Under the pieces are notes generated by a model. That model searched no databases, was not told the DNA's origin, and saw only the letters and a program-made list of their open reading frames with translations. A stretch of 64,000 nucleotides of DNA from NCBI GenBank assembly GCA_027297745.1, contig JAPUHK010000024.1:994-64993 (forward strand), in the 5' to 3' direction. Position numbers and translations under genes: made by a program. This DNA comes from Planctomycetota bacterium. Lineage in GTDB: Bacteria; Planctomycetota; PLA2. Shown piece after piece: positions 37,637 to 63,378 of this stretch. Position 1 is the stretch's first letter, and every line of letters starts with the position of its first letter.

Positions 37637-38665
37637 CTAGTCGTTGTCGGTCTCGGGCACGCGCAGCGTGATCCATACCGGGCGATGGTCGCTGACCGCG
37701 CGGGCCGCCGCCGCATCGTTGCCGCCGTAGATCGTCTCGTCGAACTTGCGCGTTCCGGACGTTCCGGTCCACTCCGTCGTGTGCTTCGGATGGATGAAGA
37801 TCTGATCGAAGTTGGTGCGTCCCCGCACGCCGGTGAACGTCAGGTCGTCGACGGTCGGCCTCAGGCCGGAGTTTTGGAGCAGCGCCTCGAAGGCCGGGTC
37901 GCCGCTGTCCAACTTGAAGTCGCCCATCAGGATCACGTCGCGGTCACCGGGCGTCGCCGCCTGGATACGGTCCCAGGCCGCGGCCAGCGCGCTCACCTCG
38001 GCCTTGCAGTGCGCCAGCGTGTGGCCGGGGTAGATGTGCACGGCCGCCAGCGTGAAGTCGAAGCCGCCGCCGGTCGTGAAGCCGGCGAAGACTACGTCGC
38101 GCGTCAGCTCGTTGTCCGGGTCGGCATCGACCTTCAGCCCGCCGGCCATGCGGATCGCGGAGGAATCCCACAGGAGCCCGATGCGCTGCCGGTGGCCACT
38201 GGCCTCTCCCAGCTCCGGGCTGGCCGCATGTTTCCAGGAGGAGCCGAACTCGCTCGCCAGGCGCTCCAGCGACTGCTCGCTGCGGACACCCGCCAGAACC
38301 ACGATCTGCATGCCCTCGACGGTCCGGGCGATGGCGCTGCGCGCTTCCGCGCTGCTCATGCGCTGCACGTTCCACCACATGACGCTCACGGTCGGGCCCG
38401 GAGTGGGCTGCGAGGGCAAGACCACCTTGGGGGTGGGCTGCACTTTGGCCACCGGCTCCACCCCGGCCACGGGCTCTTCCCGAGGGGGCGGGGTCATGAC
38501 CGTGGCCGGCGTCGGCTCTTCCGTGGGGACGTCCCTGATCATGGGGACAGCGCCGGGCTCGCCCGCCACGGCGGTGCCGAGGGTCGGCTCACGGTAGTCG
38601 GGGCCGGTCCCCTGGCAGGCCGCCAAAGCAGCGGCCAAGGCGGCGGCGACGAAGACTCTGGGCAT
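37637..38665 (-). CDS. Exo/endonuclease/phosphatase (EEP) family lipoprotein.
   Basis: Lipobox LAACQG. A Pro-rich linker. An EEP core (VMWWNVQ ... ILMGDFKLD ... SDHRPVWITL). Confidence 0.75.
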   Translation of the reverse strand: MPRVFVAAALAAALAACQGTGPDYREPTLGTAVAGEPGAVPMIRDVPTEEPTPATVMTPPPREEPVAGVEPVAKVQPTPKVVLPSQPTPGPTVSVMWWNVQRMSSAEARSAIARTVEGMQIVVLAGVRSEQSLERLASEFGSSWKHAASPELGEASGHRQRIGLLWDSSAIRMAGGLKVDADPDNELTRDVVFAGFTTGGGFDFTLAAVHIYPGHTLAHCKAEVSALAAAWDRIQAATPGDRDVILMGDFKLDSGDPAFEALLQNSGLRPTVDDLTFTGVRGRTNFDQIFIHPKHTTEWTGTSGTRKFDETIYGGNDAAAARAVSDHRPVWITLRVPETDND

Positions 38666-39142
38666 GTTCTCCTCCTAGCTTGGGCTAGTGTCGCCACGGC
38701 CGCTGGTGGCGTCCAGACCTTATTCGGCCCCTCGAGGGCGATTCGGGCCGCTTGTCCCAGAGCGACGCAACCGCCTGACAGATGGGGCCCCCTTTGTCGA
38801 TTTCGGTCGACGACGGGACCCGTCCCTGGCCTGAAAGCCGGCCTTCCAGAAGTTCGCTCTGTGGGTGTGCGGCGCCCCGCTGCGGCGGGTCCGGGCACGC
38901 CCGTTGCGGTCGGGACGCGGCAGTAATCGACGATTCCCGAGCCGGCGCTCCGCACACACCCGCAGTAGCCGCGGCTAGTGCATTCGGACGCCGGCCGGGG
39001 CGGGGCTTCGACACCTGGACGGCGGTGCGAGGGGCGCGGGCCGGGGCCCGACTTGGGGCCTTCATGCCCTAAATGCGCCAAGCGCTCGCTGACACCGCGG
39101 CCGAGATGCCTGAGAATGCATGACCAGAGAGAGGAGATCTTC

Positions 39143-39889
39143 ATGACGAGAGTTGGTTTGGGTGTGTTCGTGGTTGCGTTGGTGACTCTGGGGTTGGTCG
39201 GCGTCGGCTGCAAGGGCACGACCAGCGGCGACTCGGGGTGCGGCGCCTGTGGAGACGGGTGCGCTGCATGCGGTGCGTGCGGCGCCTGCGGCGCTTGCGG
39301 CGACGGTTGCGGTGCAGGTTGCGGTGCGTGCGGCGGCTGTGCAGGCTGCGGCGACGGTTGCGGCGGCTGTGGCGGTAAGAGCGGCTGTGGCACTTGCGGC
39401 GACGGTTGTGGCGGATGTGGCGGCAAGAGTGGTTGTGCCTCCGCGTGTGGTTGCGGTGGCTGTGGCTGTGGCGGTTGCGGTTGCGGCGGCGGGGCGAGCA
39501 CGTCCAGCTCCGACCAAAAGCACGCCAAGGAGTTGTTCGCCTCCTACAAGAGTTGGCGCAAGATGACCGACGCGCCCTTCAAGAGCAAGGGCCACGGCAA
39601 CATGATGGTGCACGACTGGGTCAACTCGCGTGCGCTGGCCACCTTCCGGGCCAAAAAGGGCAGCTACGTGCCCGGCGCGGCCCTGGCCAAGACGGGCTGG
39701 AAGGGCGATACGCTCAAGAAGGTGTGGCTCATGGAGAAGCGCGGCAGCGGCTACGACAAGGAGAACGGGGACTGGTGGTACGCACAGCTCAACGCCGCCG
39801 GCAAGGTGGAGAAGGCGGGCAAGGCCTCGGGCTGCATCGACTGCCACGGGGGCGCCGACAACGACTACGTCTTCGGCCTGAAGAAGTAG
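39143..39889 (+). CDS. Lipoprotein with a metallothionein-like Cys-Gly repeat linker and a C-terminal CxxCH domain resembling cytochrome P460 / c'-beta.
   Basis: A GAGAGGAG ribosome-binding site precedes the ATG. Lipobox LVGVGC. About 26 Cys occur in roughly 95 aa of [18 protein letters not shown] repeats. The C-terminal domain of about 120 aa ends with [10 protein letters not shown], the single heme-binding motif. Confidence 0.7.
39238..39500 (+). repeat. Imperfect tandem TGCGGC(G/A)(C/G)NTGYGGC repeat encoding the Cys-Gly stretch.
   Basis: Seen directly in the DNA. Its antisense strand gives a spurious Pro/Gln-rich ORF (38539-39528). Confidence 0.8.
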
Positions 39890-43167: not shown

Positions 43168-43473
43168 ATGGACGGTGACTTCATGGACGGTGCTCAGGCC
43201 AGGCTCGCCGCGTTGCGCGTGATGCAGGACGTGCTGGACGGGAGCGTACGGCGGGTGGGGGAGCTGCGCCGGGCGTGGCCGCCGGCCGAAGCTGATTTCC
43301 TGCTGAAGCGGGCGCGCCAGGAGGCGGAGCACTACCTGGTCACGGGCGGGGAGCTCGAGCGCCGTTTCGTGGCCATGCTGCGCTCGTTTCTGGAACGCGG
43401 CGGCACGGCCGGGGAGCTCGAGCAGGCCTACGATGAGGTGATCCGAGTCCACAACGAGGAGACGGGTGACTAG
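43168..43473 (+). CDS. Hypothetical protein.
   Basis: About 100 aa. The start is ambiguous (ATGs at 43126, 43168 and 43183). The 3' end overlaps the DUF488 start by 8 nt. No family recognised. Confidence 0.4.
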   Translation: MDGDFMDGAQARLAALRVMQDVLDGSVRRVGELRRAWPPAEADFLLKRARQEAEHYLVTGGELERRFVAMLRSFLERGGTAGELEQAYDEVIRVHNEETGD

Positions 43474-44011
43474 CCCGAAGCTCTTCACCGTCGGCCACAG
43501 CAACCGCACGGCGCCGGATCTCGTGCGGCTGCTGCTTGCGCACGGCATCCGCACCGTGTGCGACGTGCGCGCCTTTCCGAAGTCGAGCCGCTGGCCGCAT
43601 TTCGACCGCGAGGCGCTGGAGCCTGTGTTGCAGGACGCCGGGATCGAGTACGTCTGGCTCGGCGAGCCGCTCGGCGGCTACCGCAAGGGCAAACGCACGG
43701 ACTCGGTGCACACGGCGCTGGACAGCTTCCGCAGCTACGCGGATCACATGGAGAGCGACGAGTTCCGTGCAGGGATCGCGCGCTTGCTAGCGCTCGCGTG
43801 CGAGACGCCGACGGCCTACCTGTGCGCCGAGAAGGACTGGCGCCGCTGCCACCGGCGCCTGATCTCAGACCACCTCGTGGAGCTCGAGGGCGCCGCAGTG
43901 GTCCACCTGCTGGCAGCGGACGCCTGTGAGGCCCACGCGCTGGACCCGCGTGCCCGCGTCGTGGCGGGGCGCCTGGTGTACGACCGGGGCGCGCAGGCCG
44001 AGCTCTTCTGA
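43466..44011 (+). CDS. DUF488-family protein.
   Basis: LFTVGHSNRT ... CAEKDWRRCHRRLI is characteristic of DUF488. GTG start. Confidence 0.7.
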   Translation: MTSPKLFTVGHSNRTAPDLVRLLLAHGIRTVCDVRAFPKSSRWPHFDREALEPVLQDAGIEYVWLGEPLGGYRKGKRTDSVHTALDSFRSYADHMESDEFRAGIARLLALACETPTAYLCAEKDWRRCHRRLISDHLVELEGAAVVHLLAADACEAHALDPRARVVAGRLVYDRGAQAELF

Positions 44012-44051
44012 CGCCGCGCTGTCCCGGGCTTCTGTTAGGCTTTTGTTAGGT

Positions 44052-45077
44052 ATGCTGACAAGGGTCGAGAACCCGCCGAACCCGTGGCACTCCCAGCACC
44101 AGGAGTGGGTTGGACCGCCGCCGCCTGCACGCCTGCAGGTCTACGAAGAGAGGGCCAGGTCGATCGTGGTTGAGAACCGGAGCCCAGACGTGGGCTTCGG
44201 TTTCTCCATCAACCCCTACAGGGGGTGTTTTCACGGGTGCTCCTACTGCTACGCGAGGCCCACGCACCAGTACCTCGACTTCGGCGCGGGCACGGACTTC
44301 GAGCGCAAGATCGTCGTGAAGGTCAACGCGCCGGAGCTTCTGCGCGAGCGCTTTCTCAAGCCTTCGTGGCGGGGCGATCTGATCGCACTTTCGGGCAACA
44401 CCGATTGCTATCAGCCGCTCGAAGCCACCTACGGGATCACCCGCCGCATCCTCGAGGTCTGCGCGGAGTTCCGCAATCCAGTGGCCGTGATCACGAAGGC
44501 GGCGCTGATCCGGCGCGACGTCGACGTGCTTTGCGAGCTGGCGCGCCGGGCGCAGCTGTCGGTCTCTTTCAGCATCCCGTTCGTCGACGAATGGATGGCG
44601 CGGCAGATCGAGCCTTACGCGCCGTCCCCGGACATGCGCTTTGGGGCCATGCGCGTGCTGGCCGAGGCCGGGATTCCGGTCGGCGTGGCCGTGGCTCCGC
44701 TGATCCCCGGACTGAACGACAGCCAGGTGACCGCGATCCTGGAGCGGGCGCGCGATTGCGGCGCGCGCAGCGCGTTCAAGATCCTGCTGCGCCTCCCCGC
44801 GGAGGTGAAGGACGTGTTCATCCCCCGCCTGCGGCGCTCCTACCCGGGGCGTTCGAAGCGTGTGCTGAACGCGCTCAAGGAGATGCGCGGCGGCGCCCTG
44901 TACACCGCGCAGTTCGGCAGCCGCATGCGCGGCCGCGGACACCGCTGGAAGGCGCTCGAGGACCTGTTCGAGGTCACCTGCCGACGGCTCGGGCTCAACG
45001 CGCGCCGCACGGAGGAAGAGCCGACGACCTTCCGCCGGCCGTGCACGCAGCTCTCGTTGCTCGACCCTACGCCGTGA
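44052..45077 (+). CDS. Radical SAM protein (SPL / DNA-photolyase-like radical SAM family).
   Basis: CFHGCSYCYA (CxxxCxxC) near the N-terminus. About 340 aa. Start taken at the internal Met MLTRVENPP. Confidence 0.75.
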   Translation: MLTRVENPPNPWHSQHQEWVGPPPPARLQVYEERARSIVVENRSPDVGFGFSINPYRGCFHGCSYCYARPTHQYLDFGAGTDFERKIVVKVNAPELLRERFLKPSWRGDLIALSGNTDCYQPLEATYGITRRILEVCAEFRNPVAVITKAALIRRDVDVLCELARRAQLSVSFSIPFVDEWMARQIEPYAPSPDMRFGAMRVLAEAGIPVGVAVAPLIPGLNDSQVTAILERARDCGARSAFKILLRLPAEVKDVFIPRLRRSYPGRSKRVLNALKEMRGGALYTAQFGSRMRGRGHRWKALEDLFEVTCRRLGLNARRTEEEPTTFRRPCTQLSLLDPTP

Positions 45078-53566: not shown

Positions 53567-56395
53567 CTAGGGTCCGCTGACGTAGTTGCCGGCGTTGCCC
53601 CCGATGTTGCCGTTGGCGTCCAGCCAGGAGTCCAGGTGGATTCCGATGGCCGGGTCGGGGTTGGTCAGCCTGTCGATCAGCGTGCCCGTCAGCGGTCCCG
53701 CCATGGTCGGGTTGGGCGTGCCCGTGCGCAAGCTCGGGCCCGTCCCCGGCATGAGCGGGTGGTTGCTGGAGCTCGTCGGAGTTCCGTCCGCGAGCACGAT
53801 GCTGTCCAGGTTGTAAGCGATGCGGGTCATGAACGTGGCCGGGTCGAAGGCCGTCGCCGGCGCGACCGTCACGTTCTGGATGCCCGGATCGGCGAAGATG
53901 CCGTACCGGTTCGGGTTCTGGTCCAGCGGGTTGATAGCGCCGCCGTTCCCGTCGAACAGGAACAGCCCCGTACCCAGGCCGGCCACCATGTGCACCCAGA
54001 AGGGTGAGTTCATCTGGTTGCCGGAGTTCTGGCCGAAGTGCTGCCTCAGCTCCGTGAAGTCCAGTTGATCGTAGCTTCCGCTCGCCATGGCGGAACGGAA
54101 GGCCACGTACTCGGTCCCGTACTGCTGCATACCCGCCTCGGTGATGTGGCACGCGACGCAGTAGCGCGGGCCCTCCATGGTGGAGGTGACGCGGCCGCGG
54201 ATCGAGTGGGCCATCATCGCGTTGTGACCGAGCGAGGGCGTTTGGTTGGGGTCGCTCCCCTGCGCCTTGCGGTCGGAGAACGTGAAGATGCTGGACAGCT
54301 GGTTGTTGCGGTCCTCCCACTGGAAGAACATCTTCGTGTTCGAGCTGACCTGCGTGATCTCGTTGTGCGGGCTGATGCCCAGCGCCATGAACACGGGCGA
54401 CTGGTACACGAACTCGGCCTCGTCCTCCTCGAAGACGATGCGCTCGCCCGTGATGTTGCTGAAGTCATTCGAGTACTCGCCCTTCAGGTGACAGCCCATG
54501 CACGTGTTCGTCCACGAAGCGTGGCAGGACGCGCAGTCCAGGTCGTCCGTGTGGCTGAAGTTGCTCGGGACCGCGTTGTTCGCCTGGATCGGACCTATGC
54601 CGGTCGTGCCCAGGCCGTCGTCACGGCCCATCGCATAGGAGGCCTTGTCGCTGTACAGGGGCGCCCCGCTGAACGGGTGCGTCCGGCCCGTGTTCACGGT
54701 GACGTCCAGCGTCTGCGGGACGAAGTGACGCGCGCCCGTGAGACGGCTGTACAGGTAGAAGTGGCCGTCGCTCTCCAGCACGACGTGCGCCAGGGTGTTC
54801 CCCTCGCCGTCCACCGCCAGCTCCTGGGTGGTGTTGTCGTAGGCCGTGCCTTGAGCCGTCTGGGCATAGGCCGCGACGCCGCCGTGGCAGCTCTCGCAAC
54901 GGATCCCCACGGCGTGCTCCATGCGGCTCACGATCTTGCCGCCGCTCGGGGAGGTCACGTCGCCGCCGTGCAGGTCGAAGCTGCCGTGGCAGTCGATGCA
55001 GCCCATGCCGGCCTCGTAGTGCACGTCGGGCGGGGTGTCGTCGCGGCCGTCGTCGTCGTAGTCCTCCTCGAGGAGGTACTGGTTGCGGTTGCGCCCGTTG
55101 AACTCGCGGTTCCCCAACCGGATCAGGACGCCGTTCTGGTCGTAGATCGGCAGGTTGGGGTCGAACAGGCGCGTGTCGCCGGAGGTCGTCCGGTAACTTC
55201 CCGGCTGCGACGGGTACTGGAAGCCGCGCCGCACGTCCTGGTTCTGGTCGAGGCGGATGCCCCAGTACTGCATGACCGTGCGGTTCGAGCCCTGGTGGCA
55301 GCCGGCGCAGGCGTAGTCGTCGATGCCCTGGACGAACTCGCCGCTGGACAACGTCTTGGCCACGGTGCGGATCAGGTGGCGGGCGACGTGCGGCAGCTCG
55401 GGCTCGTCGATGTCGTCCGGATCGTACGGCTCCATGCGGTTGAGGTTCGGATCGTTGCTGGTGGAGCGCCCGCTCAGGCTGTGGCGCATGTGGCACGCCG
55501 AGCAACCCGAGCCGCGGTAGTCGCCGTAGCGGTTGTTCGCGCCGGCGCTGCCGAGGTGGCAGTCTCCGCAGGTGTAGGCGATCTGCTCGTGATAGAGCTT
55601 CGCCAGCGGGGAGTCCGTGATCGCCTGGCCCGTCAGCGGATCGATGTCGTCATCGAGCTCGGCGGCGTCGAAATCCGGGTTGTTGCGGATGTCGTTCGGG
55701 CCGTTGTTGAAGCGCCGGCTGTAGACCGGGAACTCCATCAGGTTTTGCACCGAACCGAAGGTCGTCGGGTCGAAGCTCTGGTCCGTGACGGCGCGAATGC
55801 CCAGGTCGGCGGCCGTGTCCTCGTAGCCCGTGTACCCCATCTGGTTGTCCACGCCGGCCGCGAACATCGCGCCGGAGAAGATGCCCATCTCGGTGGCGAT
55901 CGGGCTCTGGGACACGATCTGCGCGTGGTTCGCGTGGCACTGGCCGCAGCTGCGGTTCTGCGTGACCACGCGGATGTCGGCCGGGCTGACGAACTGCAGC
56001 CAGTCCAGCGCGCTGTAGGTCTGCCCGTTCGCGGCCGTGTAGTCCGGGAACTTGTCCGGACCGGCCAGGGTCAGCCGGTTGAAGTAGGCGTGGTCGTTGT
56101 TGATCCAGTTCTGCCGGTCGCCGATCTCGGGCGGCGCCGGGACGTGGCTCGAGGCCCTGTCCGTCCCGTTCGGGTTTCCGCCGTGGCAGGTGGTGCACAG
56201 CAGGTTGCTGGCGCCCGTGAAGGGGTGTGGGTTCTCGAGGCCCGGGCCCCCGTAGTTGTTGTCCACGGAGCCGTTGTGGCAGGTCATGCACGACTGGGCC
56301 GACGCTGTGATCGCGCGGCCGCTGGAGTCGACGCAGCCCGTCACGACGAACGCCAGTAGGAAGATGACTGAGAGGAGACCTCTGTGATGAGTCAT
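53567..56395 (-). CDS. Undecaheme c-type cytochrome lipoprotein (outer-membrane / extracellular multiheme cytochrome candidate).
   Basis: Lipobox LAFVVTGC. Eleven CxxCH motifs (CMTCH, CTTCH, CGQCH, CGDCH, CSACH, CAGCH, CIDCH, CESCH, CASCH, CMGCH, CVACH) in about 940 aa. The ATG at 56395 has an alternative GTG at 56407. Confidence 0.85.
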   Translation of the reverse strand: MTHHRGLLSVIFLLAFVVTGCVDSSGRAITASAQSCMTCHNGSVDNNYGGPGLENPHPFTGASNLLCTTCHGGNPNGTDRASSHVPAPPEIGDRQNWINNDHAYFNRLTLAGPDKFPDYTAANGQTYSALDWLQFVSPADIRVVTQNRSCGQCHANHAQIVSQSPIATEMGIFSGAMFAAGVDNQMGYTGYEDTAADLGIRAVTDQSFDPTTFGSVQNLMEFPVYSRRFNNGPNDIRNNPDFDAAELDDDIDPLTGQAITDSPLAKLYHEQIAYTCGDCHLGSAGANNRYGDYRGSGCSACHMRHSLSGRSTSNDPNLNRMEPYDPDDIDEPELPHVARHLIRTVAKTLSSGEFVQGIDDYACAGCHQGSNRTVMQYWGIRLDQNQDVRRGFQYPSQPGSYRTTSGDTRLFDPNLPIYDQNGVLIRLGNREFNGRNRNQYLLEEDYDDDGRDDTPPDVHYEAGMGCIDCHGSFDLHGGDVTSPSGGKIVSRMEHAVGIRCESCHGGVAAYAQTAQGTAYDNTTQELAVDGEGNTLAHVVLESDGHFYLYSRLTGARHFVPQTLDVTVNTGRTHPFSGAPLYSDKASYAMGRDDGLGTTGIGPIQANNAVPSNFSHTDDLDCASCHASWTNTCMGCHLKGEYSNDFSNITGERIVFEEDEAEFVYQSPVFMALGISPHNEITQVSSNTKMFFQWEDRNNQLSSIFTFSDRKAQGSDPNQTPSLGHNAMMAHSIRGRVTSTMEGPRYCVACHITEAGMQQYGTEYVAFRSAMASGSYDQLDFTELRQHFGQNSGNQMNSPFWVHMVAGLGTGLFLFDGNGGAINPLDQNPNRYGIFADPGIQNVTVAPATAFDPATFMTRIAYNLDSIVLADGTPTSSSNHPLMPGTGPSLRTGTPNPTMAGPLTGTLIDRLTNPDPAIGIHLDSWLDANGNIGGNAGNYVSGP

Positions 56396-56630
56396 TTCTG
56401 ATCTCACTTTGCCCGACCCCTCCGGCGGCGACCGCCGGAGTCCGAGCGAGAGGGCGTGAGAGCCGGCCCCACGAGGGAGAGACCAACACGCGGTAGTCCG
56501 ATGCTAGGAACGGGTATCACTTGGAGGGGGGCCTGAGAGACGCAACTTGAGACTTCAGCCGGAGCGTCTCGTTGTGAGGCGGCTCGATCGGAAACGCCGG
56601 CGGTCTGCCCCACAAACCGTGCGGGGCCGC

Positions 56631-57278
56631 TCAATTGACGGCCGGCACCCATGCCGTGGGCACGTGGCACTCGTGGCAGTTGTCGACGAAGCCCAGCGGG
56701 ATGTGGGGGGGATTGGTGGTGTTGTTCCGGTCGTCCACGTGGCACGTGACGCACTCGGTGTCCACGGGGATGAAGTTGCCGACCCGCGCGCCCGGGTGGC
56801 AGCGGTAGCAGGCCACCAACGTGTGGGCGCCGAGCAGCGGGAAGCGCGTCCGGTCGTGGAGCGCGATCTGGCCCACGGGGCGCCAGGTCTGCTCGGTGTG
56901 GCAGCGGGTGCAGTCCTTGTCCAGGTCGCCGTAGTGGTAGTCCTCGTGGCAGCCCGTGCAGCCCTGCGAGTGGAAGATCGCCACAGGCCCGCGGTCGTTG
57001 TGGCAACGCAGACATTGCGCCTGCTCATGAGCCCCGTTGAGAGCGAAGCCGGTGTTGGCCAGGTGGTTGAACTTGAAGTCGCTCTTGAGCTTGTTCCAGT
57101 CACCGCCCACGTGGCACAGCTGACAGTCGGCCGGGAACGAGTCGTGCGGCAGGACCGGTCCGAAACCCGCCCACCAACGGTGCTGCTTGCCGGTCAGCGG
57201 GCGCGCGGCGGCGCAGGCCAACAGGATCGCGCTCAGGAGCGCGATCGCGATCGGGCGTCTACGGAATCGGAATCGCAT
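56631..57278 (-). CDS. Periplasmic heptaheme c-type cytochrome.
   Basis: Signal peptide MRFRFRRRPIAIALLSAILLACAAA. Seven CxxCH motifs (CQLCH, CLRCH, CTGCH, CTRCH, CYRCH, CVTCH, CHECH) in about 215 aa. A GAGAG ribosome-binding site lies 12 nt after the OMP stop codon. Confidence 0.85.
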   Translation of the reverse strand: MRFRFRRRPIAIALLSAILLACAAARPLTGKQHRWWAGFGPVLPHDSFPADCQLCHVGGDWNKLKSDFKFNHLANTGFALNGAHEQAQCLRCHNDRGPVAIFHSQGCTGCHEDYHYGDLDKDCTRCHTEQTWRPVGQIALHDRTRFPLLGAHTLVACYRCHPGARVGNFIPVDTECVTCHVDDRNNTTNPPHIPLGFVDNCHECHVPTAWVPAVN

Positions 57279-57290
57279 GGGTATCAACTC

Positions 57291-59081
57291 TCAAAAGCCC
57301 TTCTGCCAGGTGAACCCAGCGGACCACGAGATCTCCTTGTCGTAGGCGACGACCTCCCCGAACACGTAGACGTCCCAGTTTCCGACGCGATAGACGCTCA
57401 AGCTGCCGCGCAGACGTTGCTGCACCAGGTCGTCCCGGTTCGCGTTCAGGCCGTGGATGTGGTGGAAGGCAAGCTCGTACATCAGGTCCCACCTGCCCTT
57501 GGCCGTCGTGCGGCCGTAGAGGAGACGCACGCCCGCCACGCTCTCGTACTGGCCGATGTTGCCGTAGCCGACGAGGTCCAGGTGCGCCTGGCGCCGCAGC
57601 GTCTGTTCGACGCCGATGTCGAACGCGCCGCCGCTGCCGTCCTCGTCGACCCAGCCGCTGACGTGCCCGTGCAGGCGCCTGTCGGCGCCCAGCATCTTCC
57701 AGAGGTTCAGCGCCAGCCGGTCGAACTCGTTGTTCGCCAGGTCGGCGGCGAAGACGATGGGACGGTATTCGCCCTCCCGCAAGAGCTCTGCGAACGCCCA
57801 GTGCTGATAGAGGAACTGGATGCCGCCCCGGGCGAAGGTGCGGTTCAGGGAGGCGATGGCCTGCGTGATCTCTATGCCTGAGCCCTTGATCGGGTCGCTG
57901 GCGGAGTAGAAGTCGACCCAGATCGTGGCGTGGAAGGCCCAGCCGTCCACCGGCAGAACGTGCATGCGGGCCACCAGGAGGTCGCGGTCCGGGTTGCCGT
58001 TGTTCCAGGTCTTCTGGAAGCCGCCGGCGATCAGGAAACGCTCGTTCGGGTCCTGCACCCACTCGTACCAGCCCGCCAGCTGGAAGTCCTCGAAGGTGTC
58101 GAAGTCGTCGTTCAGCTCCGGCATGTAGCCCATGCTCACGCCGTAGCGGTGCCCGTTGTCGCCCCTATGCGCCCACTGCAGGCCGTCCAGCACGCCGAAC
58201 TCGGGCATGCCGTGCTGCAGGAAGCGGCCGACCTCCCAGCGGTTGCTGTTGAAGCGATTTCCGCCGCGGAAATAGGAGAGGCGGCGCAGCAGGAAGTCCC
58301 CCGTGAGGTCGCTGTTGTACTTGTAGTTCGCCAGGTAGGCCGCCTCCGCGTTGAGGCGGAAGCCGCCGCCCTTGCCGAAGGGATTCGAGTAGGTCAGGTC
58401 CGTGCCGACTCGCAAGTAGGAGCTGGTGAAGTCGCTGTCGGGGTTGTCCGTCACCGCGGCGCTCACATAGGTGAAGCCGGCGAGCCCCTTCCGGCGGTTC
58501 TTGGGGCGCACGGCTCCGGTCTCGGCCAGCAGCGACTTGCTCGTGGACCACTCCTCGTCCTTGTTCTTCCAGGGCGGGTGTTCCGGAGTCTCGCCCTCGG
58601 TGCCCGCGGCAGCAGCGCCTCCGGCTGCCGCTGCACCTGCGGCGACTCCGGCGCCGTCTTTGTCCTTGTCTTCCGGCTCGCCTTCGCCTTCCGGCTTGGT
58701 GCCTTCCCCTTCAGGCTGTCCGCCTTCGGGTTCCGGTTGCAGTTCGGGCTCCGGCTCAGGATCGGGTTGCGTGAAGCGCGAAGCCGGGATCAGCACTTCG
58801 CCGCGCGTGCCCGCTTCGGGAACGAACTTGGCGTCGCGCATCTCGACCACCGCGCTGCGCGCGCGGACCGAGAGCACGGTTCCGGAATAGGTGCCGCCCT
58901 GGCGCGGGAAGAAGGACACGACGTCGCCGATGGCGAGGCCGTCCCGCTTGCCGCGGTCGATGGTGACCGAGGCTCCGGGTCCCGCGGAGCTCACGCGCAG
59001 GGACACACGTTCCAGCTCTTCCTGCGCCCATGCGGACACGCAGGTCCACAGGACCATGGAGAGCAGAATTACAAGCCTCAC
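57291..59081 (-). CDS. Outer-membrane beta-barrel protein (porin-like), candidate sheath of a porin-cytochrome conduit.
   Basis: A GTG start overlaps the upstream stop codon (GTGA) and is preceded by GGAAGGAAGA. Signal peptide MRLVILLSMVLWTCVSAWA. An acidic PEPE/Gly-Ala low-complexity linker. Alternating amphipathic beta-strands. C-terminal aromatic residues FTWQKGF. Confidence 0.75.
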   Translation of the reverse strand: MRLVILLSMVLWTCVSAWAQEELERVSLRVSSAGPGASVTIDRGKRDGLAIGDVVSFFPRQGGTYSGTVLSVRARSAVVEMRDAKFVPEAGTRGEVLIPASRFTQPDPEPEPELQPEPEGGQPEGEGTKPEGEGEPEDKDKDGAGVAAGAAAAGGAAAAGTEGETPEHPPWKNKDEEWSTSKSLLAETGAVRPKNRRKGLAGFTYVSAAVTDNPDSDFTSSYLRVGTDLTYSNPFGKGGGFRLNAEAAYLANYKYNSDLTGDFLLRRLSYFRGGNRFNSNRWEVGRFLQHGMPEFGVLDGLQWAHRGDNGHRYGVSMGYMPELNDDFDTFEDFQLAGWYEWVQDPNERFLIAGGFQKTWNNGNPDRDLLVARMHVLPVDGWAFHATIWVDFYSASDPIKGSGIEITQAIASLNRTFARGGIQFLYQHWAFAELLREGEYRPIVFAADLANNEFDRLALNLWKMLGADRRLHGHVSGWVDEDGSGGAFDIGVEQTLRRQAHLDLVGYGNIGQYESVAGVRLLYGRTTAKGRWDLMYELAFHHIHGLNANRDDLVQQRLRGSLSVYRVGNWDVYVFGEVVAYDKEISWSAGFTWQKGF

Positions 59082-61156
59082 CGCTTTTCTTCCTTCGCGC
59101 CCCGGCGGAACGGGTTCTCGTCCTCGCCGTGGCAATCGGCGCACCTGCCCCCCATCGGGCGATAGCGGATGAAGTCTTTACCGTTCTCGCGAACTGGTAA
59201 ATGGCAGGCGGAGCAGGCCAGGGGGGTGTGGGCCTCCCCGAGCTGGAAGCTCGAGTCCAGGTCGTGGCGGAAGCTCAGGTCCGTGAAGGCCGCAGCGGCA
59301 GGCCTGTGGCAGCTCCGGCAGTCGGTCAGCCCCTTCACCTCGAACTGCCCGGCATGGGAATCCTGGTGGCAATCCGAGCAGTGGCCGCCCTTGGCGCGGG
59401 CCCAGGTGCGCCCGGCCTCGTCCGGCTCCCGCAGGGGGGTGTGGCAGTCGGCGCAGTCGACTTTCTTGTGCTGGCCGACCAGGGCGAAGCCGGTCCAGCG
59501 CTTGTGGTCGAAGCCGTTCGGGAAGGTCCGGAACGAGCTCTCGCCGTGGCAGCGCTCGCAGCCGGTCTTGCCCTTGAAGGTGCGCGGCATGCCGGGCTTG
59601 TCGAAGTCGTTCTTGTGCGGATCGATGTGGCACGTGTCGCACCCCTCGTACACGCCGAAGCGATCCGAGACGCGGCCGAACGTGCGGCCGAAGCGGTCGG
59701 GTTCCGGGGTGCGCGGGTGGCAGGCCTCGCACTCCTCCTGCGCGTGGGCCGCGACTAGCGGGAACCCCGTCCACGGGCCGTGGTCGAAGGCCTCGGGCGG
59801 GATGTCCCGGAAGTCCGTGGCCAGGTGGCAGTCGGCGCAGCGGCCGTACGTGCTCGCCGATGTCTCCGGCGCGAACTGCTCGAAGAACCCCTCGTGCGGG
59901 TCCGGATGGCATCCGGCGCACTTGACGGGAGTCCCGTGGAACACGCGCGGGCTGCCCTCGATGGGCGCCGCCTCGTGGCACGCGTTGCAGTCGGTCTCGA
60001 TATGGCTGCCGATCAAAGGCAGGGACGTCTCCGCGTGCATCTCGACGCTGAAGATGTGCGGCTCGAAGTAGAGCGTCCCGTGGCAGGCGACGCACGCGCC
60101 GCTCTTGAACGAACCCTCGCCGAACTGGCCGCCGTGGGGATCCTCGTGGCACGCGGCGCAGTCGTCGGCCGCGCGGGCCGGGTAGCGGGCCTTGAAGTCC
60201 TCGTGGTTGAGATCGTGGCAGTCCGCGCAGCCCACTTCGTGATGCGGATCGGTGAGCGAGAACCCGGAGCTTTCGTGCTGCTCCACGGTCATCTCCCCGA
60301 GCTGCCTGTCGTTCCAGGTCGTGTGCTCCGCGCGATGGCACACGTCACAGGCGGCGCCGGTGGGGCGGGAGACCTGCAACGCGACGCCGTCGACGAAACC
60401 CTCGGCGTGCGAGTTCGCGTGGCAGTCCACGCACATGCGCGCGGCCGGGGCGCGATTCTCGCCTAGCGCCTCGAGCGTGTAGGGCTCGTTCGCGTGGCAG
60501 GAGCGGCACTCCATGTTGCTGTGGCCGCCGATCAGCTGCAGGTAGTCCTCGTGGCCGCGCGACTCCAGCTCCGCCCAGGCGCGTTGCCCGTGGCACTGGA
60601 CGCAGCTCAGCGCCGCGTAGCGGCCCTCGTGCACATCCCCGTGGCACGTCGTGCACTCCTGGTCGAGCCCGATGTAGCGCGTCGCGCCCTCCGGCAGGAT
60701 CTCGATGTTCACCTGCAGGTGGCACTCGTTGCAGGCCAGCTCGATGTGCCGGCCGTCCATGGGGAAGCGGATCATGTTGTGGTCGAACTCCGCCGGGTCG
60801 GGCACGCCCGCGGCCGCGAAGCTCTGCCGGTTGACGATGGCGAAGCCCGCGCCGTGGTGCTCGCTGTGGCACAACGCGCACAGCATGGCCTTGTTCCCAA
60901 TCACGCCGTGGAGTCCGTTTCCGGCGGCGATCTGCGCGTCGATCGTCTTGTGGCACTCGAGACACGCATCCGACATGCTCAGGAACAATCCGCCGTGGCA
61001 CGCGGAGCAGCTCTCGCCGCGGTTCAGGTCGCCCACGCGCGCGTGGACGGCCGTGACCTCTCCCGGTGACTTGCGCCCGAGGTGGCCGATCACGACGTAG
61101 AGCACCGCCGCAGCCGAGGCCAGGCCGATCCAGAGGCCGGGACGTCCCAGCTTCAA
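59078..61156 (-). CDS. Membrane-anchored 23-heme c-type cytochrome.
   Basis: N-terminal signal-anchor (LWIGLASAAAVLYVVIGHL). 23 CxxCH motifs counted by eye in 692 aa, about one per 30 residues. A TTG start overlaps the upstream stop codon. Confidence 0.85.
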   Translation of the reverse strand: MKLGRPGLWIGLASAAAVLYVVIGHLGRKSPGEVTAVHARVGDLNRGESCSACHGGLFLSMSDACLECHKTIDAQIAAGNGLHGVIGNKAMLCALCHSEHHGAGFAIVNRQSFAAAGVPDPAEFDHNMIRFPMDGRHIELACNECHLQVNIEILPEGATRYIGLDQECTTCHGDVHEGRYAALSCVQCHGQRAWAELESRGHEDYLQLIGGHSNMECRSCHANEPYTLEALGENRAPAARMCVDCHANSHAEGFVDGVALQVSRPTGAACDVCHRAEHTTWNDRQLGEMTVEQHESSGFSLTDPHHEVGCADCHDLNHEDFKARYPARAADDCAACHEDPHGGQFGEGSFKSGACVACHGTLYFEPHIFSVEMHAETSLPLIGSHIETDCNACHEAAPIEGSPRVFHGTPVKCAGCHPDPHEGFFEQFAPETSASTYGRCADCHLATDFRDIPPEAFDHGPWTGFPLVAAHAQEECEACHPRTPEPDRFGRTFGRVSDRFGVYEGCDTCHIDPHKNDFDKPGMPRTFKGKTGCERCHGESSFRTFPNGFDHKRWTGFALVGQHKKVDCADCHTPLREPDEAGRTWARAKGGHCSDCHQDSHAGQFEVKGLTDCRSCHRPAAAAFTDLSFRHDLDSSFQLGEAHTPLACSACHLPVRENGKDFIRYRPMGGRCADCHGEDENPFRRGAKEEKR

Positions 61157-63378
61157 CTTTTGCCCCCGAAGAAGAAGGGGTAGTACGCGAGCGCGTAGAC
61201 GATGTGGATTACCACCAGCAGCACCATCAGCGCCGCCATCCAGCGGTGCAACCAGCGCCAGGTGCCGAGCACCGCGCGCAGGTCCTCATAGTGCGCCGCC
61301 ATGAGCGCCGTGCGGTGTGCCTTGCGCGCGAGCTGCATCGTTTCCTTGATCTGCTCCTCGTCGATGCCCTCTTCACGCCCTTCGTCCTCCAGGCGTGTGA
61401 GCAAGCGCTTCAAGCCGCCCCGGCCGGTCAGCATGGACAGCACGCGCCCAAGGAACCCCGAGCCCCATTGCTTCTTCTCGATCAGCTCATCCACCGCGCT
61501 GCGCGCCCGTTCGCGGTACTCCCGTTGGCCCTGGTCCCACTCCTCGGACATGCGGCCGAGGCGGGCCTTGACCTCCTGCAGCTCCAGCTCGCGTCCGTTC
61601 GCGGCGCGCGGCACGCAGGCGTAGAAGTAGCGTCCGATGGCGCCGGTGACCAACAGCACCGCCAGCGCCCAAAAGGCGTGCCCCGCGACGGTGTTGCCGG
61701 GCGCCATGGCGCCGTGCAGCGTCGCCAGCAAGAGCGCCAGGATGCCCGTGGCGACGTGGCTCGTCATCCAGATCTGCAGGGAGCCGACGTTGAGCCGGAA
61801 GCGCGGCGAACGCCGCACCAGATAAAGGAGGTTCACGAGGATCAGCGCGGTCGCGCCGATGCCCAGCCACAGGCCGAGGCCGAGGCCCGGGCGCAGCAGC
61901 GCATGCTTCGGGTGCGCGGCGCGCGCGGAGGCCGGCAGGCCGTAGTAGTCCGCGTGCACCATGACCCAGACCAACGCGGCCAGCGAGAGTGTGAAGCCGA
62001 TGCCGAGCGCGTGGACCAGGCCCGTGCCCTGCTCGCCGAGCTGGGGCGCCGCCTTGCGCAGCGACGGGTCGAAGGACACGCCCGAGCGTTCGAGCAGCTC
62101 CAGCGGCGCGCTGCCGCCCGCCATCACGAACACCTCGTCGTTCGGCAACGTGCGCGTCGCCGTGCCGTAGCCGCTCTGCACCGTGAGCTCGACCGAGTCC
62201 GGACGGATCGCCCGCACTTCGCTGTTGAACAGGACCTCGAGCTTGCCCTCGCGCAGGCATTCGTCCAGGCGCTCCTGGTTCTTGGGTCGAATGCGGAAGA
62301 AGCTCTCCTTGCGGTACGAGAGCGTCACCTGGTTCCCCGGTTGCTCCGCGAGACCCATGGCCGCCTCGACCGCGCTGTCGCCGCCGCCGACGACCAACGT
62401 GCGCCGGTGCTGGTACGAGTGGGCGTCCAGCAGGCTGTAGGCCACCTTGGACAGGTCTTCGCCTTCCACGCCGAGCTTGCGCGGCGAGCCGCGGCGGCCC
62501 ACCGCCAGACAGACGTTGCGCGCCGTGTAACTGCCGGTCTTGGTGCGCACGACGTAATTGCCGTCGTCGTCCCGGCTAAGACCCACGAACGTCTCCTGGG
62601 AGCGGATCGGCAGCTGCTGCTCCTCCGCGATGTGCGCCCACAGCTCGACCAGCTCTTCCTTCGTGTAACTGGACTTCAGGCGGCCGTAGAGCGGCAGGTC
62701 GACCGGCTGGCTCATGATCAGCTTGCGCCGCGGGTACTTCGCGACCGTGCCGCCGGGCCCGCTCTCCTGGTCCAGCGTCACGAACTTCAGGCCGTGGCGC
62801 TTGGCCTCGAGCGAACACGCCAGGCCGGCGGGGCCGGCGCCGACCACGCACAGGTCCAGCGTGCCGTTGGGGTTGGGCTCGTGCTCCAGGCGCCGCGCGA
62901 CTTCGCCCGCTACGGCCGTTCCGTGGTCGACGGCGGTCTTGATCAGCGAGTGCGCGGTCACCTCACCCGCGAGGAACAGCCCGGGCGAGCCCACGGCCTC
63001 GAGCTGTTCGGTCAGGACCGGGATGTCCCGGCGCTCGGCGATGTCGCTCAGCGTGACCTTGATCGCGCCGACGGGGCACTCGCGCTCACACAGGGCATGG
63101 CCGACGCAGCGCGCGCCGTGCACGACCATGGCCTGGCCGTGCACGAGCTTCAGCACCTGGTCCTCGGGACAGACGTCGACGCACGTGCCGCAGCCCAGGC
63201 AGCGGGACAGATCGACGACGGGTTGGGCGAGCTGGGCCTTGTCACTCCCCTGACGGACCGCCTGCTCACGGTCGCCCAGCGCGCGGCGCATGCGCCGGAG
63301 CTCCAGGCGCCGCGCGATCGCCACCATGAGGGATAGGCCTAGGGCGACTACGACTCCAATAAGGAGGGGCCAACTCAT
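61153..63378 (-). CDS. Membrane-bound fusion oxidoreductase: N-terminal TM helix + 2x[4Fe-4S] ferredoxin + FAD/NAD(P)-binding (TrxB/GltD-like) domain + C-terminal polytopic domain with His-bearing TM helices (putative cytochrome b).
   Basis: CLGCGTCVDVCP and CVGHALCERECP. Rossmann motifs VVGAGPAGLA and VVGGGDSAVEAA. Five or six C-terminal TM helices with conserved His (MVHADYYG, TSHVATGILALLLATLHG, GHAFWALAVLL, VVIHIVYAL). GGAG ribosome-binding site before the ATG at 63378. Confidence 0.75.
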   Translation of the reverse strand: MSWPLLIGVVVALGLSLMVAIARRLELRRMRRALGDREQAVRQGSDKAQLAQPVVDLSRCLGCGTCVDVCPEDQVLKLVHGQAMVVHGARCVGHALCERECPVGAIKVTLSDIAERRDIPVLTEQLEAVGSPGLFLAGEVTAHSLIKTAVDHGTAVAGEVARRLEHEPNPNGTLDLCVVGAGPAGLACSLEAKRHGLKFVTLDQESGPGGTVAKYPRRKLIMSQPVDLPLYGRLKSSYTKEELVELWAHIAEEQQLPIRSQETFVGLSRDDDGNYVVRTKTGSYTARNVCLAVGRRGSPRKLGVEGEDLSKVAYSLLDAHSYQHRRTLVVGGGDSAVEAAMGLAEQPGNQVTLSYRKESFFRIRPKNQERLDECLREGKLEVLFNSEVRAIRPDSVELTVQSGYGTATRTLPNDEVFVMAGGSAPLELLERSGVSFDPSLRKAAPQLGEQGTGLVHALGIGFTLSLAALVWVMVHADYYGLPASARAAHPKHALLRPGLGLGLWLGIGATALILVNLLYLVRRSPRFRLNVGSLQIWMTSHVATGILALLLATLHGAMAPGNTVAGHAFWALAVLLVTGAIGRYFYACVPRAANGRELELQEVKARLGRMSEEWDQGQREYRERARSAVDELIEKKQWGSGFLGRVLSMLTGRGGLKRLLTRLEDEGREEGIDEEQIKETMQLARKAHRTALMAAHYEDLRAVLGTWRWLHRWMAALMVLLVVIHIVYALAYYPFFFGGKS

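Follow-up and report, generated by a model that had tools for sequence, protein, structure and literature searches.

Cytochromes P460 and c'-beta have been studied almost exclusively in nitrifiers and methanotrophs, as soluble haem proteins that handle hydroxylamine (NH2OH) or nitric oxide (NO). The c'-beta proteins (McCP-beta, TtCP-beta, NeCP-beta) are small periplasmic haem proteins that bind NO and carbon monoxide (CO), and the P460 proteins, marked by a Soret signature at 435-460 nm, have a lysine (Lys) that cross-links to the haem, which is Lys70 in NeP460 and Lys78 in McP460. This Lys binds the haem's gamma-meso carbon and corresponds to phenylalanine (Phe) or methionine (Met) in the c'-beta proteins (Table 2, PMC11928373); formation of the cross-link depends on distal-loop residues and peroxide (PMC10411619). 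Oxidation of NH2OH requires a distal proton-relay carboxylate, Glu96 in NeP460 and Asp102 in McP460, and the inactive NsP460 of Nitrosomonas sp. AL212 has alanine (Ala) at this position (PMC11928373). Here we analyse a gene at positions 39143-39889 of a 64,000-nucleotide stretch of a Planctomycetota contig (JAPUHK010000024.1; the whole stretch is called the window below), which encodes a predicted lipoprotein with a P460-type haem domain mounted on a tether dense in cysteine (Cys) and glycine (Gly). The gene belongs to a known domain family and carries the automatic annotation "cytochrome P460 family protein". Planctomycetota, lipoproteins and fusions all go unmentioned in a 2025 review of the superfamily. 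In the searchable literature, that review included, neither the Cys-dense lipoprotein tether nor its parallels in other P460 clades nor a link to Rieske/cytochrome b-c genes was found described.

A three-part lipoprotein

The open reading frame (ORF) runs on the forward strand from an ATG at 39143 to a stop codon at 39887-39889. The predicted 248-amino-acid product is made of three parts: a lipoprotein signal, a Cys/Gly tether and a single-haem P460-type domain. A preliminary description of this DNA had read the gene as a lipoprotein in which a Cys-Gly repeat precedes a C-terminal haem domain, and this layout is borne out by the lipobox Cys23, the Cys/Gly tether and the PF16694 domain, all of which were found. 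The features of the coding region are as follows.

39143..39211 (+): lipoprotein signal peptide (residues 1-23), lipobox Cys23 at 39209-39211, from the sequence and the clade alignment
39212..39496 (+): disordered Cys/Gly-rich tether, residues 24-118 (about 95 amino acids), with 25 Cys, from composition, spacing and a predicted local distance difference test score (pLDDT) of about 40 in AlphaFold2 (AF2)
39239..39437 (+): imperfect tandem repeat of 48-51 nucleotides coding for most of the tether; Tandem Repeats Finder (TRF) scores 153-171, 2.5-3.2 copies, 74-81% matches
39449..39496 (+): 6-nucleotide GGTGGC-like array coding for the CGCGGCGCGG block, and site of a +CG indel in strain loci L017 and L018, from TRF and strain comparison
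39497..39886 (+): haem c domain of P460/c'-beta fold, residues 119-248 (about 130 amino acids), from PF16694, a PDB profile search, AF2 and Foldseek
39593..39595 (+): His151, candidate distal "capping-position" residue; clade-invariant, with its spacing to Lys183 inferred from the alignment
39689..39691 (+): Lys183, haem cross-link position, aligned with Lys78 of McP460 and Phe61 of TtCP-beta
39833..39847 (+): CIDCH haem c attachment motif with Cys231, Cys234 and proximal His235, from the sequence; invariant in the clade

The signal peptide agrees with the PROSITE-type rule for predicted lipoboxes, with M-T-R followed by a 17-residue hydrophobic stretch and V-G-V-G-C23. Cys23 is invariant in 30/30 aligned clade members, and position -1 is G, A or S. 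Because no twin-arginine motif was found in the signal peptide, Sec export is expected, as for c-type cytochromes. The 28 Cys of the product comprise the lipobox Cys23, 25 residues between positions 33 and 114, and Cys231 and Cys234 of the CIDCH motif.

The haem domain is P460-like

The hidden Markov model check that the preliminary description had recommended places the C-terminal domain in the Cytochrome_P460 family: PF16694 scores 33.6 bits, above its gathering score of 27, and the match spans residues 134-244 and profile positions 3-124 of 125. A globular domain of about 120 amino acids had been anticipated; the domain is there, and its size is about 130. No NCBIfam model matched the window protein, and a single-sequence search of the PDB sequences returned noise only. 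A clade profile was needed, and it matches the Thermus thermophilus c'-beta protein 7ead and the Methylococcus capsulatus P460 entries 6hiu and 9hrk. In an AF2 model built on 30 homologues, residues 120-248 have pLDDT values above 90, and the four best PDB matches of this domain in Foldseek are 7ead (TtCP-beta), 8gar (NeP460), 7zqz (McCP-beta) and 2je2 (NeP460), the fifth match lying at E=0.9. The earlier assignment to the P460/c'-beta group is thus upheld by structure comparison, with 7ead as the best structural match (E=2e-5, target-normalised TM-score 0.66).

The domain has a single CxxCH near its C-terminus, as the P460 family requires, with CIDCH at residues 231-235 of 248. The cross-link Lys, another point marked for checking, is present: the profile alignment pairs K183 in "GAALAKTGW" with Lys78 in "GAILVKLSW" of McP460. 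The column holds Lys in 185/209 related domains (89%) and is at least 90% conserved within the clade. Since Lys183 occupies the position of TtCP-beta Phe61, the protein lacks the Phe or Met that characterises the c'-beta proteins. We therefore file the domain in the P460/c'-beta superfamily and regard it as P460-like by the Lys criterion; the cross-link itself and the chemistry of the haem are predicted.

Comparison with the characterised proteins reveals both a shared plan and clear differences. With NeP460, McP460 and NsP460 the domain has in common the Pfam family, the beta-sheet fold, the C-terminal CxxCH, the Lys at the cross-link position and a predicted periplasmic location. It differs from them in its low sequence similarity (E=1e-3 with the profile), in its predicted lipid anchorage through a 25-Cys tether and in its origin from Planctomycetota rather than a nitrifier or methanotroph. 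His151 and the Met197-Glu-Lys-Arg strand are likewise specific to the family of the window protein, and Trp195 stands at the distal carboxylate position, a situation comparable to the Ala of the inactive NsP460. The c'-beta proteins, for their part, are soluble, lack a Cys-rich extension and have Phe or Met in place of Lys183 (PMC11928373 for Phe/Met).

The assignment of the distal carboxylate position to Trp195 is made at the level of the alignment only, four residues before the conserved Lys of the "VKD" strand; relatives have T, F or W in this column, and Glu198 is close by on that strand. His151 is invariant in the clade and is His in 164/186 related domains. It precedes K183 by 32 residues, the same spacing as that from the distal capping Phe29 to Phe61 in TtCP-beta (Table 2, PMC11928373), and may lie in the distal pocket.

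The tether is a disordered Cys/Gly peptide

The make-up of the tether is extreme (G39 C25 A11 S5 D5 K3 T3), it lacks aromatic and large hydrophobic residues, and its Cys share of 27% compares with 1.5% in the remaining genes of the window. The preliminary description had counted about 26 tether Cys; the number is 25, and 26 is reached only if the lipid-modified Cys23 is included. Of the 24 Cys-to-Cys intervals, 13 have a spacing of 3, 6 of 4, 3 of 2 and 2 of 6, such that 22/24 correspond to CxC, CxxC or CxxxC. Two exact ferredoxin-type CxxCxxCxxxC runs are present (C46-C56 and C63-C73), and the last tether block, CGCGGCGCGGCGCGGG, adjoins the haem domain. Residues 24-113 have a pLDDT of about 40 in the AF2 model, in which no tether segment is docked onto the haem domain.

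At the DNA level, the repeat span given beforehand (39238-39500) agrees with the two TRF arrays at 39239-39437 and 39449-39496. The codons within it are unusual: TGT accounts for 40% of Cys codons in the tether against a background of 8.9%, and GGT/GGA for 36% of Gly codons against 13.5% (p ~1e-4), while the haem domain downstream uses none of the rare T- or A-ending Cys/Gly codons. Because the Cys and Gly residues of the tether are spelled with rare TGT/GGT codons, the DNA is not a simple slipping microsatellite. What selection appears to keep is the share of Cys and Gly in the peptide, not the repeat in the DNA, and the use of rare codons may reflect selection against a perfect GC repeat that would be prone to slippage or to forming structures.

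The term "metallothionein-like", which had been applied to the repeat, holds for composition only. Like metallothioneins, the tether has Cys at about 20-30%, CxC and CxxC motifs and few or no aromatic residues, but no metallothionein family in Pfam (E up to 1) or NCBIfam matched it. Set beside individual metallothioneins and phytochelatins (bacterial SmtA/BmtA and MymT, and engineered surface-displayed (Glu-Cys)nGly peptides), it is alike in having about 25-30% Cys, CxC/CxxC spacing, no aromatics and no metal-free fold, and its Cys-Gly and acidic-Gly-Cys units recall glutathione and phytochelatin. It departs from metallothioneins in lacking sequence homology, in being the exported N-terminal part of a lipoprotein rather than a free cytosolic protein and in having far more Gly; its metal binding is predicted.

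Cys density is conserved while length drifts

A homologue search against 5.8 billion proteins gave 29 close homologues, which where named are called "cytochrome P460 family protein [Planctomycetota bacterium]", and a second group of 7 from Alphaproteobacteria. The lipobox Cys is present in 29/29 of the close homologues, and all but one (P0029) have 9-31 tether Cys at a density of 19-33%. Across the clade, tether length ranges over 30-132 amino acids and domain identity over 45-94%; two proteins that are 94% identical in the domain have 9 and 14 tether Cys, and odd and even counts occur without preference. With strain contigs included, a Cys-dense tether is seen in all but one of about 35 Planctomycetota homologues. 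The exception, P0029, has a nearly Cys-free tether (about 4 Cys). It is also the sole clade member with Ala rather than Lys at the cross-link position, a single case that could be coincidence.

Comparison of repeat copy number between near-identical strains, which had been suggested for this locus, revealed in-frame variation. The domain proteins of L017 (Logan) and L018 (ENA) are identical to that of the window, and their tethers, with 26 Cys, differ from it only by an in-frame +Gly and +Cys-Gly. In L016 (NCBI) the domain is 96% identical and the tether is rearranged, with 23 Cys. All indels observed among strains are in frame, and there is no frame shift. A fourth locus, L019, is 99% identical to the window gene, and its contig (1-505) starts inside the Cys repeat, an instance of the tendency of short-read assemblies to break within it. 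The repeat did not collapse on re-assembly, as had been feared: three independent assemblies carry it with only in-frame differences, as do the roughly 35 homologues in their own versions, and an assembly artefact is thereby ruled out.

The closest database cluster (P0038) has a domain 97% identical to that of the window protein, and 11/11 of its members are only 108-129 amino acids long, an internal start codon having been called. The full lipoprotein ORF is nevertheless present on the contigs, where the truncated calls lie at L016 449-838, L017 2536-2862 and L018 1019-1345. An exact look-up of the window protein found it not on record because public gene calls start after the Cys repeat, and for the same reason Cys-rich tethers are systematically under-represented in protein databases.

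The retention of Cys density in the face of 45-94% domain identity and drifting length, together with the in-frame indels and the rare codons, indicates that the tether is a selected feature, whose Cys density of 20-30% is kept while its length drifts freely. The idea that the Cys/Gly run arose by neutral expansion of GC-rich, low-complexity (TGC GGC)n DNA and is tolerated but unused can draw on the disorder and the hypervariable sequence and length of the tether and on the ability of P0029 to manage with about 4 Cys, but we give it very little credence, as about 35 members, with domain identities as low as 45%, retain the Cys frame and a Cys density of 19-33%, the observed indels are all in frame with codons diversified away from a perfect repeat, and 25 periplasmic thiols would be costly where a reduced CxxCH is needed for haem attachment.

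Cys tethers recur in other P460-like clades

A full HMMER scan with the domain alone against 1.84 billion cluster representatives returned 875 representatives at E<1e-3, and all representatives tested pass the PF16694 threshold. Among the best 150 of the 875, most are lipoproteins that keep the cross-link Lys and have ordinary S/T/P/A/G/D tethers; ordinary S/T/P/A/G tethers are found in about 90% of the related P460-like lipoproteins, and one example, in Sericytochromatia, was read directly. In a scan of GTDB species genomes the only relatives were distant ones from Sericytochromatia and Myxococcales, and their tethers are ordinary. A search with the tether alone gave 5905 word-sharing candidates, none at E<=10; the composition correction of HMMER suppresses matches of this kind. 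The scan reveals a large uncharacterised P460-like branch, one clade of which combines a thiol-dense tether with Rieske/cytochrome b-c synteny.

Three styles of Cys tether were found: the planctomycete CG-rich style, NPC-type pentapeptides and alphaproteobacterial types. The pentapeptide repeats ("NPCGE", "NPCAA" or "DPCGG", 2-7 copies) occur in P0054, P0060, P0061, P0063, P0070, P0123, L025 (3083-3841), L056 and L063. The alphaproteobacterial tethers are either "CGACGAKKG" repeats (P0030-P0035, P0037) or of the "NPCAAKNPC...CAPCGPC" type, which has up to 29 Cys in P0169 and P0172; over the alphaproteobacterial relatives as a whole the number reaches 30. Between any two of the three groups, domain identity does not exceed about 35%. 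Relatives without Cys, at 51-61% identity, exist for the NPC and alphaproteobacterial groups; the CG clade is uniformly Cys-rich, and its nearest Cys-free relative is at most 35% identical. In about 190 kb of window and related-locus DNA that was scanned, no other genuine gene has a Cys-dense segment. Highly unusual, the term used in the preliminary description, fits the tether only in that it is undescribed; it is shared by a whole clade and has parallels in other P460 clades. This recurrence of Cys tethers on P460-like domains suggests that the thiols are connected with the haem domain.

Other relatives carry additional redox domains. In P0050 and P0062 two P460-like domains are fused to a cupredoxin of plastocyanin/azurin type, and in P0048 and P0055 two are fused to class I cytochrome c domains. 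Tandem arrays of 2-8 P460-like domains also occur in some relatives (P0044, P0052, P0072 and P0085 among them).

Rieske and cytochrome b genes adjoin the gene in related loci

At seven related loci (L001, L006, L020, L022, L023, L024 and L026) the P460 lipoprotein gene is followed on the same strand by a Rieske gene and then a cytochrome b gene, with gaps of 84-361 nucleotides; purM lies upstream in 3 of the 7. Where complete, the adjoining cytochrome b carries a C-terminal CxxCH cytochrome c domain. The cytochrome b-c fusion genes lie at L001 11593-13032, L006 6092-7333, L020 1530-2870 and L026 834-, and no separate c1-type gene stands beside them. A loose precedent is offered by planctomycete Rieske/cytochrome b complexes, for which recruitment of additional, unusual subunits is known (PMC5600118). 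Given the cupredoxin and cytochrome c fusions and the Rieske/cytochrome b synteny in relatives, P460-like domains appear to be redox modules that exchange electrons with high-potential carriers, and the electron partner in the CG clade is likely the cytochrome b-c complex. The contexts of the alphaproteobacterial homologues (Usp, TRAP transporter, FGE-sulfatase and rhodanese genes) were also considered and were uninformative.

Possible functions of the tethered haem protein

In our reading, the product is a Sec-exported, lipid-anchored, single-haem c protein of P460 type at the periplasmic face of the membrane, where the roughly 95-residue disordered tether would hold the haem domain near the membrane. 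By analogy with the characterised P460 proteins, and given what relatives show in fusions and synteny, the haem probably binds small ligands or works as an oxidoreductase, with chemistry of the NH2OH/NO type. It would trade electrons with c-type or cupredoxin partners, and in most lineages of the clade the partner is probably the Rieske/cytochrome b-c complex encoded directly downstream.

For the tether itself, we tentatively favour the possibility that it is a high-capacity thiolate array that chelates the soft metals Cu(I), Zn, Cd and Hg. According to this view, it would be a gene-encoded, membrane-tethered analogue of metallothionein or phytochelatin, with a metal capacity tuned by the gain and loss of repeat units. 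The proposal draws on the metallothionein- and phytochelatin-like composition of the tether, its lack of a fold of its own, a variation in the number of sites that is of the kind expected for capacity, and the random parity of its Cys, which also makes a defined all-disulfide fold unlikely. Where the low-complexity Cys-, His- or Met-rich tails of bacterial proteins have been studied, they are mostly metal sites, as in SlyD, HypB and the CxxC of NlpE. If the proposal is true, the tether would be a natural gene-encoded phytochelatin-like peptide displayed on the membrane.

Several observations weigh against this overall picture. In the oxidising periplasm, CxxC pairs would be disulfides and not thiolates. 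Pfam found no metallothionein homology, and no metal-resistance or metal-trafficking gene lies near the gene in the window or in the related loci. A pure metal sink also leaves the recurrence of thiol repeats before P460-like domains in three clades unexplained, and this recurrence favours direct cooperation with the haem. As for the haem, classical hydroxylamine oxidase activity is doubtful because the distal carboxylate position is occupied by Trp195, and the Rieske/cytochrome b adjacency is absent from the window lineage (L016-L019), from the P0014/P0016 lineage (L002-L004, L021) and from L005.

A rather less likely alternative is that the tether serves the haem as a redox-active or nucleophilic thiol partner, making the protein a self-contained NO/NH2OH detoxifier or an electron buffer of the respiratory chain. 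Either electrons would pass between CxxC dithiol/disulfide pairs (roughly -200 mV) and a low-potential P460-type haem, or thiolates would attack an electrophilic haem {FeNO}6 to give an S-nitrosothiol and then a disulfide plus HNO/N2O. This alternative best explains why Cys repeats recur on P460 domains: they precede such domains in three clades at most 35% identical and in differing styles, close Cys-free relatives exist in two of these clades, and the P460 gene is the only one with a Cys-dense segment in the DNA scanned. In P460 catalysis {FeNO}6 is attacked by a nucleophile, and the potentials of P460 haems lie at -300 to -420 mV (PMC11928373). The quinol oxidoreductase operon that adjoins the gene in 7 loci could re-oxidise or re-reduce the array. 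Set against this, the NPC-type repeats provide one Cys per 5 residues and not CxxC pairs, transfer from haem to disulfide is kinetically awkward as a one-electron to two-electron step, and AF2 places no segment of the tether on the domain. We also know of no natural precedent for a poly-CxxC electron store. If the thiols do cooperate with the haem, the protein would represent a new coupling of haem-NO/hydroxylamine chemistry, or of metal handling, to the quinone pool.

A more ambitious and, in our estimation, unlikely extension is that the Cys array is a working part of a new respiratory accessory module, in which tethered thiols acting as nucleophile, electron store or substrate carrier (for NO/HNO, sulfane sulfur or metal/Fe-S clusters) would be electrically joined to the Rieske/cytochrome b-c quinol oxidoreductase, and which would have arisen separately in three or more P460 clades (CG-rich, NPCxx and CGACGAKK).

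It is more unlikely again that the tether is simply the structural leash of a membrane-anchored electron shuttle for the Rieske/cytochrome b-c complex, with intra- or intermolecular disulfides that set its length or stiffness or fasten the protein to the planctomycete envelope, which is rich in cystine. Such a role fits the build of the protein (anchor, long flexible linker, haem domain), the bc-type operon adjoining in 7 loci and the freely varying tether length, and the invariant His151 near the distal capping position could give a six-coordinate electron-transfer haem. The layout of anchor, linker and single haem is shared with the membrane-anchored cytochromes c of bc complexes (Rhodobacter cytochrome cy and the lipoprotein cytochromes c of Firmicutes), although the window protein has a P460 fold and not a class I cytochrome c fold, its linker is rich in Cys rather than Ala/Pro, and a bc operon adjoins the gene in 7 related loci but not in the window or 3 other lineages. 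Ordinary S/T/P/A/G tethers, however, suffice for about 90% of the related P460-like lipoproteins, and odd Cys counts are as common as even ones. In addition, the conserved Lys points to a cross-linked, ligand-binding haem and not a simple carrier, and the alphaproteobacterial Cys-repeat proteins are neither planctomycete nor lipoproteins.

Very unlikely, finally, is a tether that carries sulfur, either on tandem copies of a SoxY-like swinging arm bearing sulfane or thiosulfonate adducts made by the haem, or as a wire of Fe-S or metal-sulfide clusters leading to the haem. The carrier-arm Cys of SoxY carries the intermediates of its pathway (PMC5336275, PMC6067878), and the GCGGCGG units of the tether resemble this arm. 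The GGCGG arm of SoxY is similar in presenting a Gly-flanked Cys on a flexible peptide to a c-type haem enzyme, SoxAX (PMC5336275), but SoxY has one Cys, C-terminal on an Ig-like domain, whereas the tether has 25 and no linked sox genes. About 3 kb from one of the alphaproteobacterial homologues there is a rhodanese gene; sox, dsr and other sulfur-oxidation genes were not found linked in the window or the related loci. The ferredoxin-type spacing at C46-C56 and C63-C73 would suit a cluster carrier, but such matches are expected by chance in a peptide with 27% Cys, and Sec export of an unfolded haem apoprotein, in keeping with the missing twin-arginine (Tat) motif, is incompatible with cytoplasmic Fe-S insertion.

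Gene start, expression signals and neighbouring genes

Two sequence signals precede the coding region.

39089..39117 (+): sigma-70-like promoter match CTGACA-17-GAGAAT, a match to the consensus only, with 1 site found where shuffled sequence gives 0.1
39132..39136 (+): Shine-Dalgarno AGGAG, 6 nucleotides ahead of the ATG at 39143, read from the sequence

The Shine-Dalgarno sequence supports 39143 as the start over the upstream GTG at 38978. Off-frame and opposite-strand ORFs that span the repeat give translations rich in Pro-Gln, Ala-Thr and Ala-Val. We rejected those at 39062-39847 (-), 38539-39528 (-) and 39249-39566 (+) as artefacts of the (TGC GGC)-like repeat, read in mirror image or in another frame, homologues being found only for the plus-strand frame of the lipoprotein gene.

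The gene is monocistronic in the window, between a divergent gene for an unannotated lipoprotein and a convergent hypothetical gene. Its neighbours (the unannotated lipoprotein, two hypotheticals, a flavoprotein disulfide reductase that falls below every NCBIfam cut-off, and a radical SAM gene with DUF488) were considered as clues to function and set aside: no link was found, and none is conserved outside the closest strains. The DUF488 gene and the PA0069-family radical SAM gene that follows it (43466-45077, +) lie 3.6 kb downstream of the P460 gene; the pair is syntenic in the closest strain (L017 6439-8050) but is missing from the other loci of the clade, and nothing was found to connect it with the tether.

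Further along the window, at 53567-63378 on the reverse strand, is a cluster of multihaem cytochrome genes encoding proteins of 946 amino acids with 11 CxxCH motifs, 218 amino acids with 7 and 692 amino acids with 23, which match c7/c3 and MtrC/MtrF-like Pfam families. The cluster also encodes a 617-amino-acid protein without a Pfam match and a 741-amino-acid Fe-S flavoprotein, and it looks like an extracellular or periplasmic electron-transfer module.

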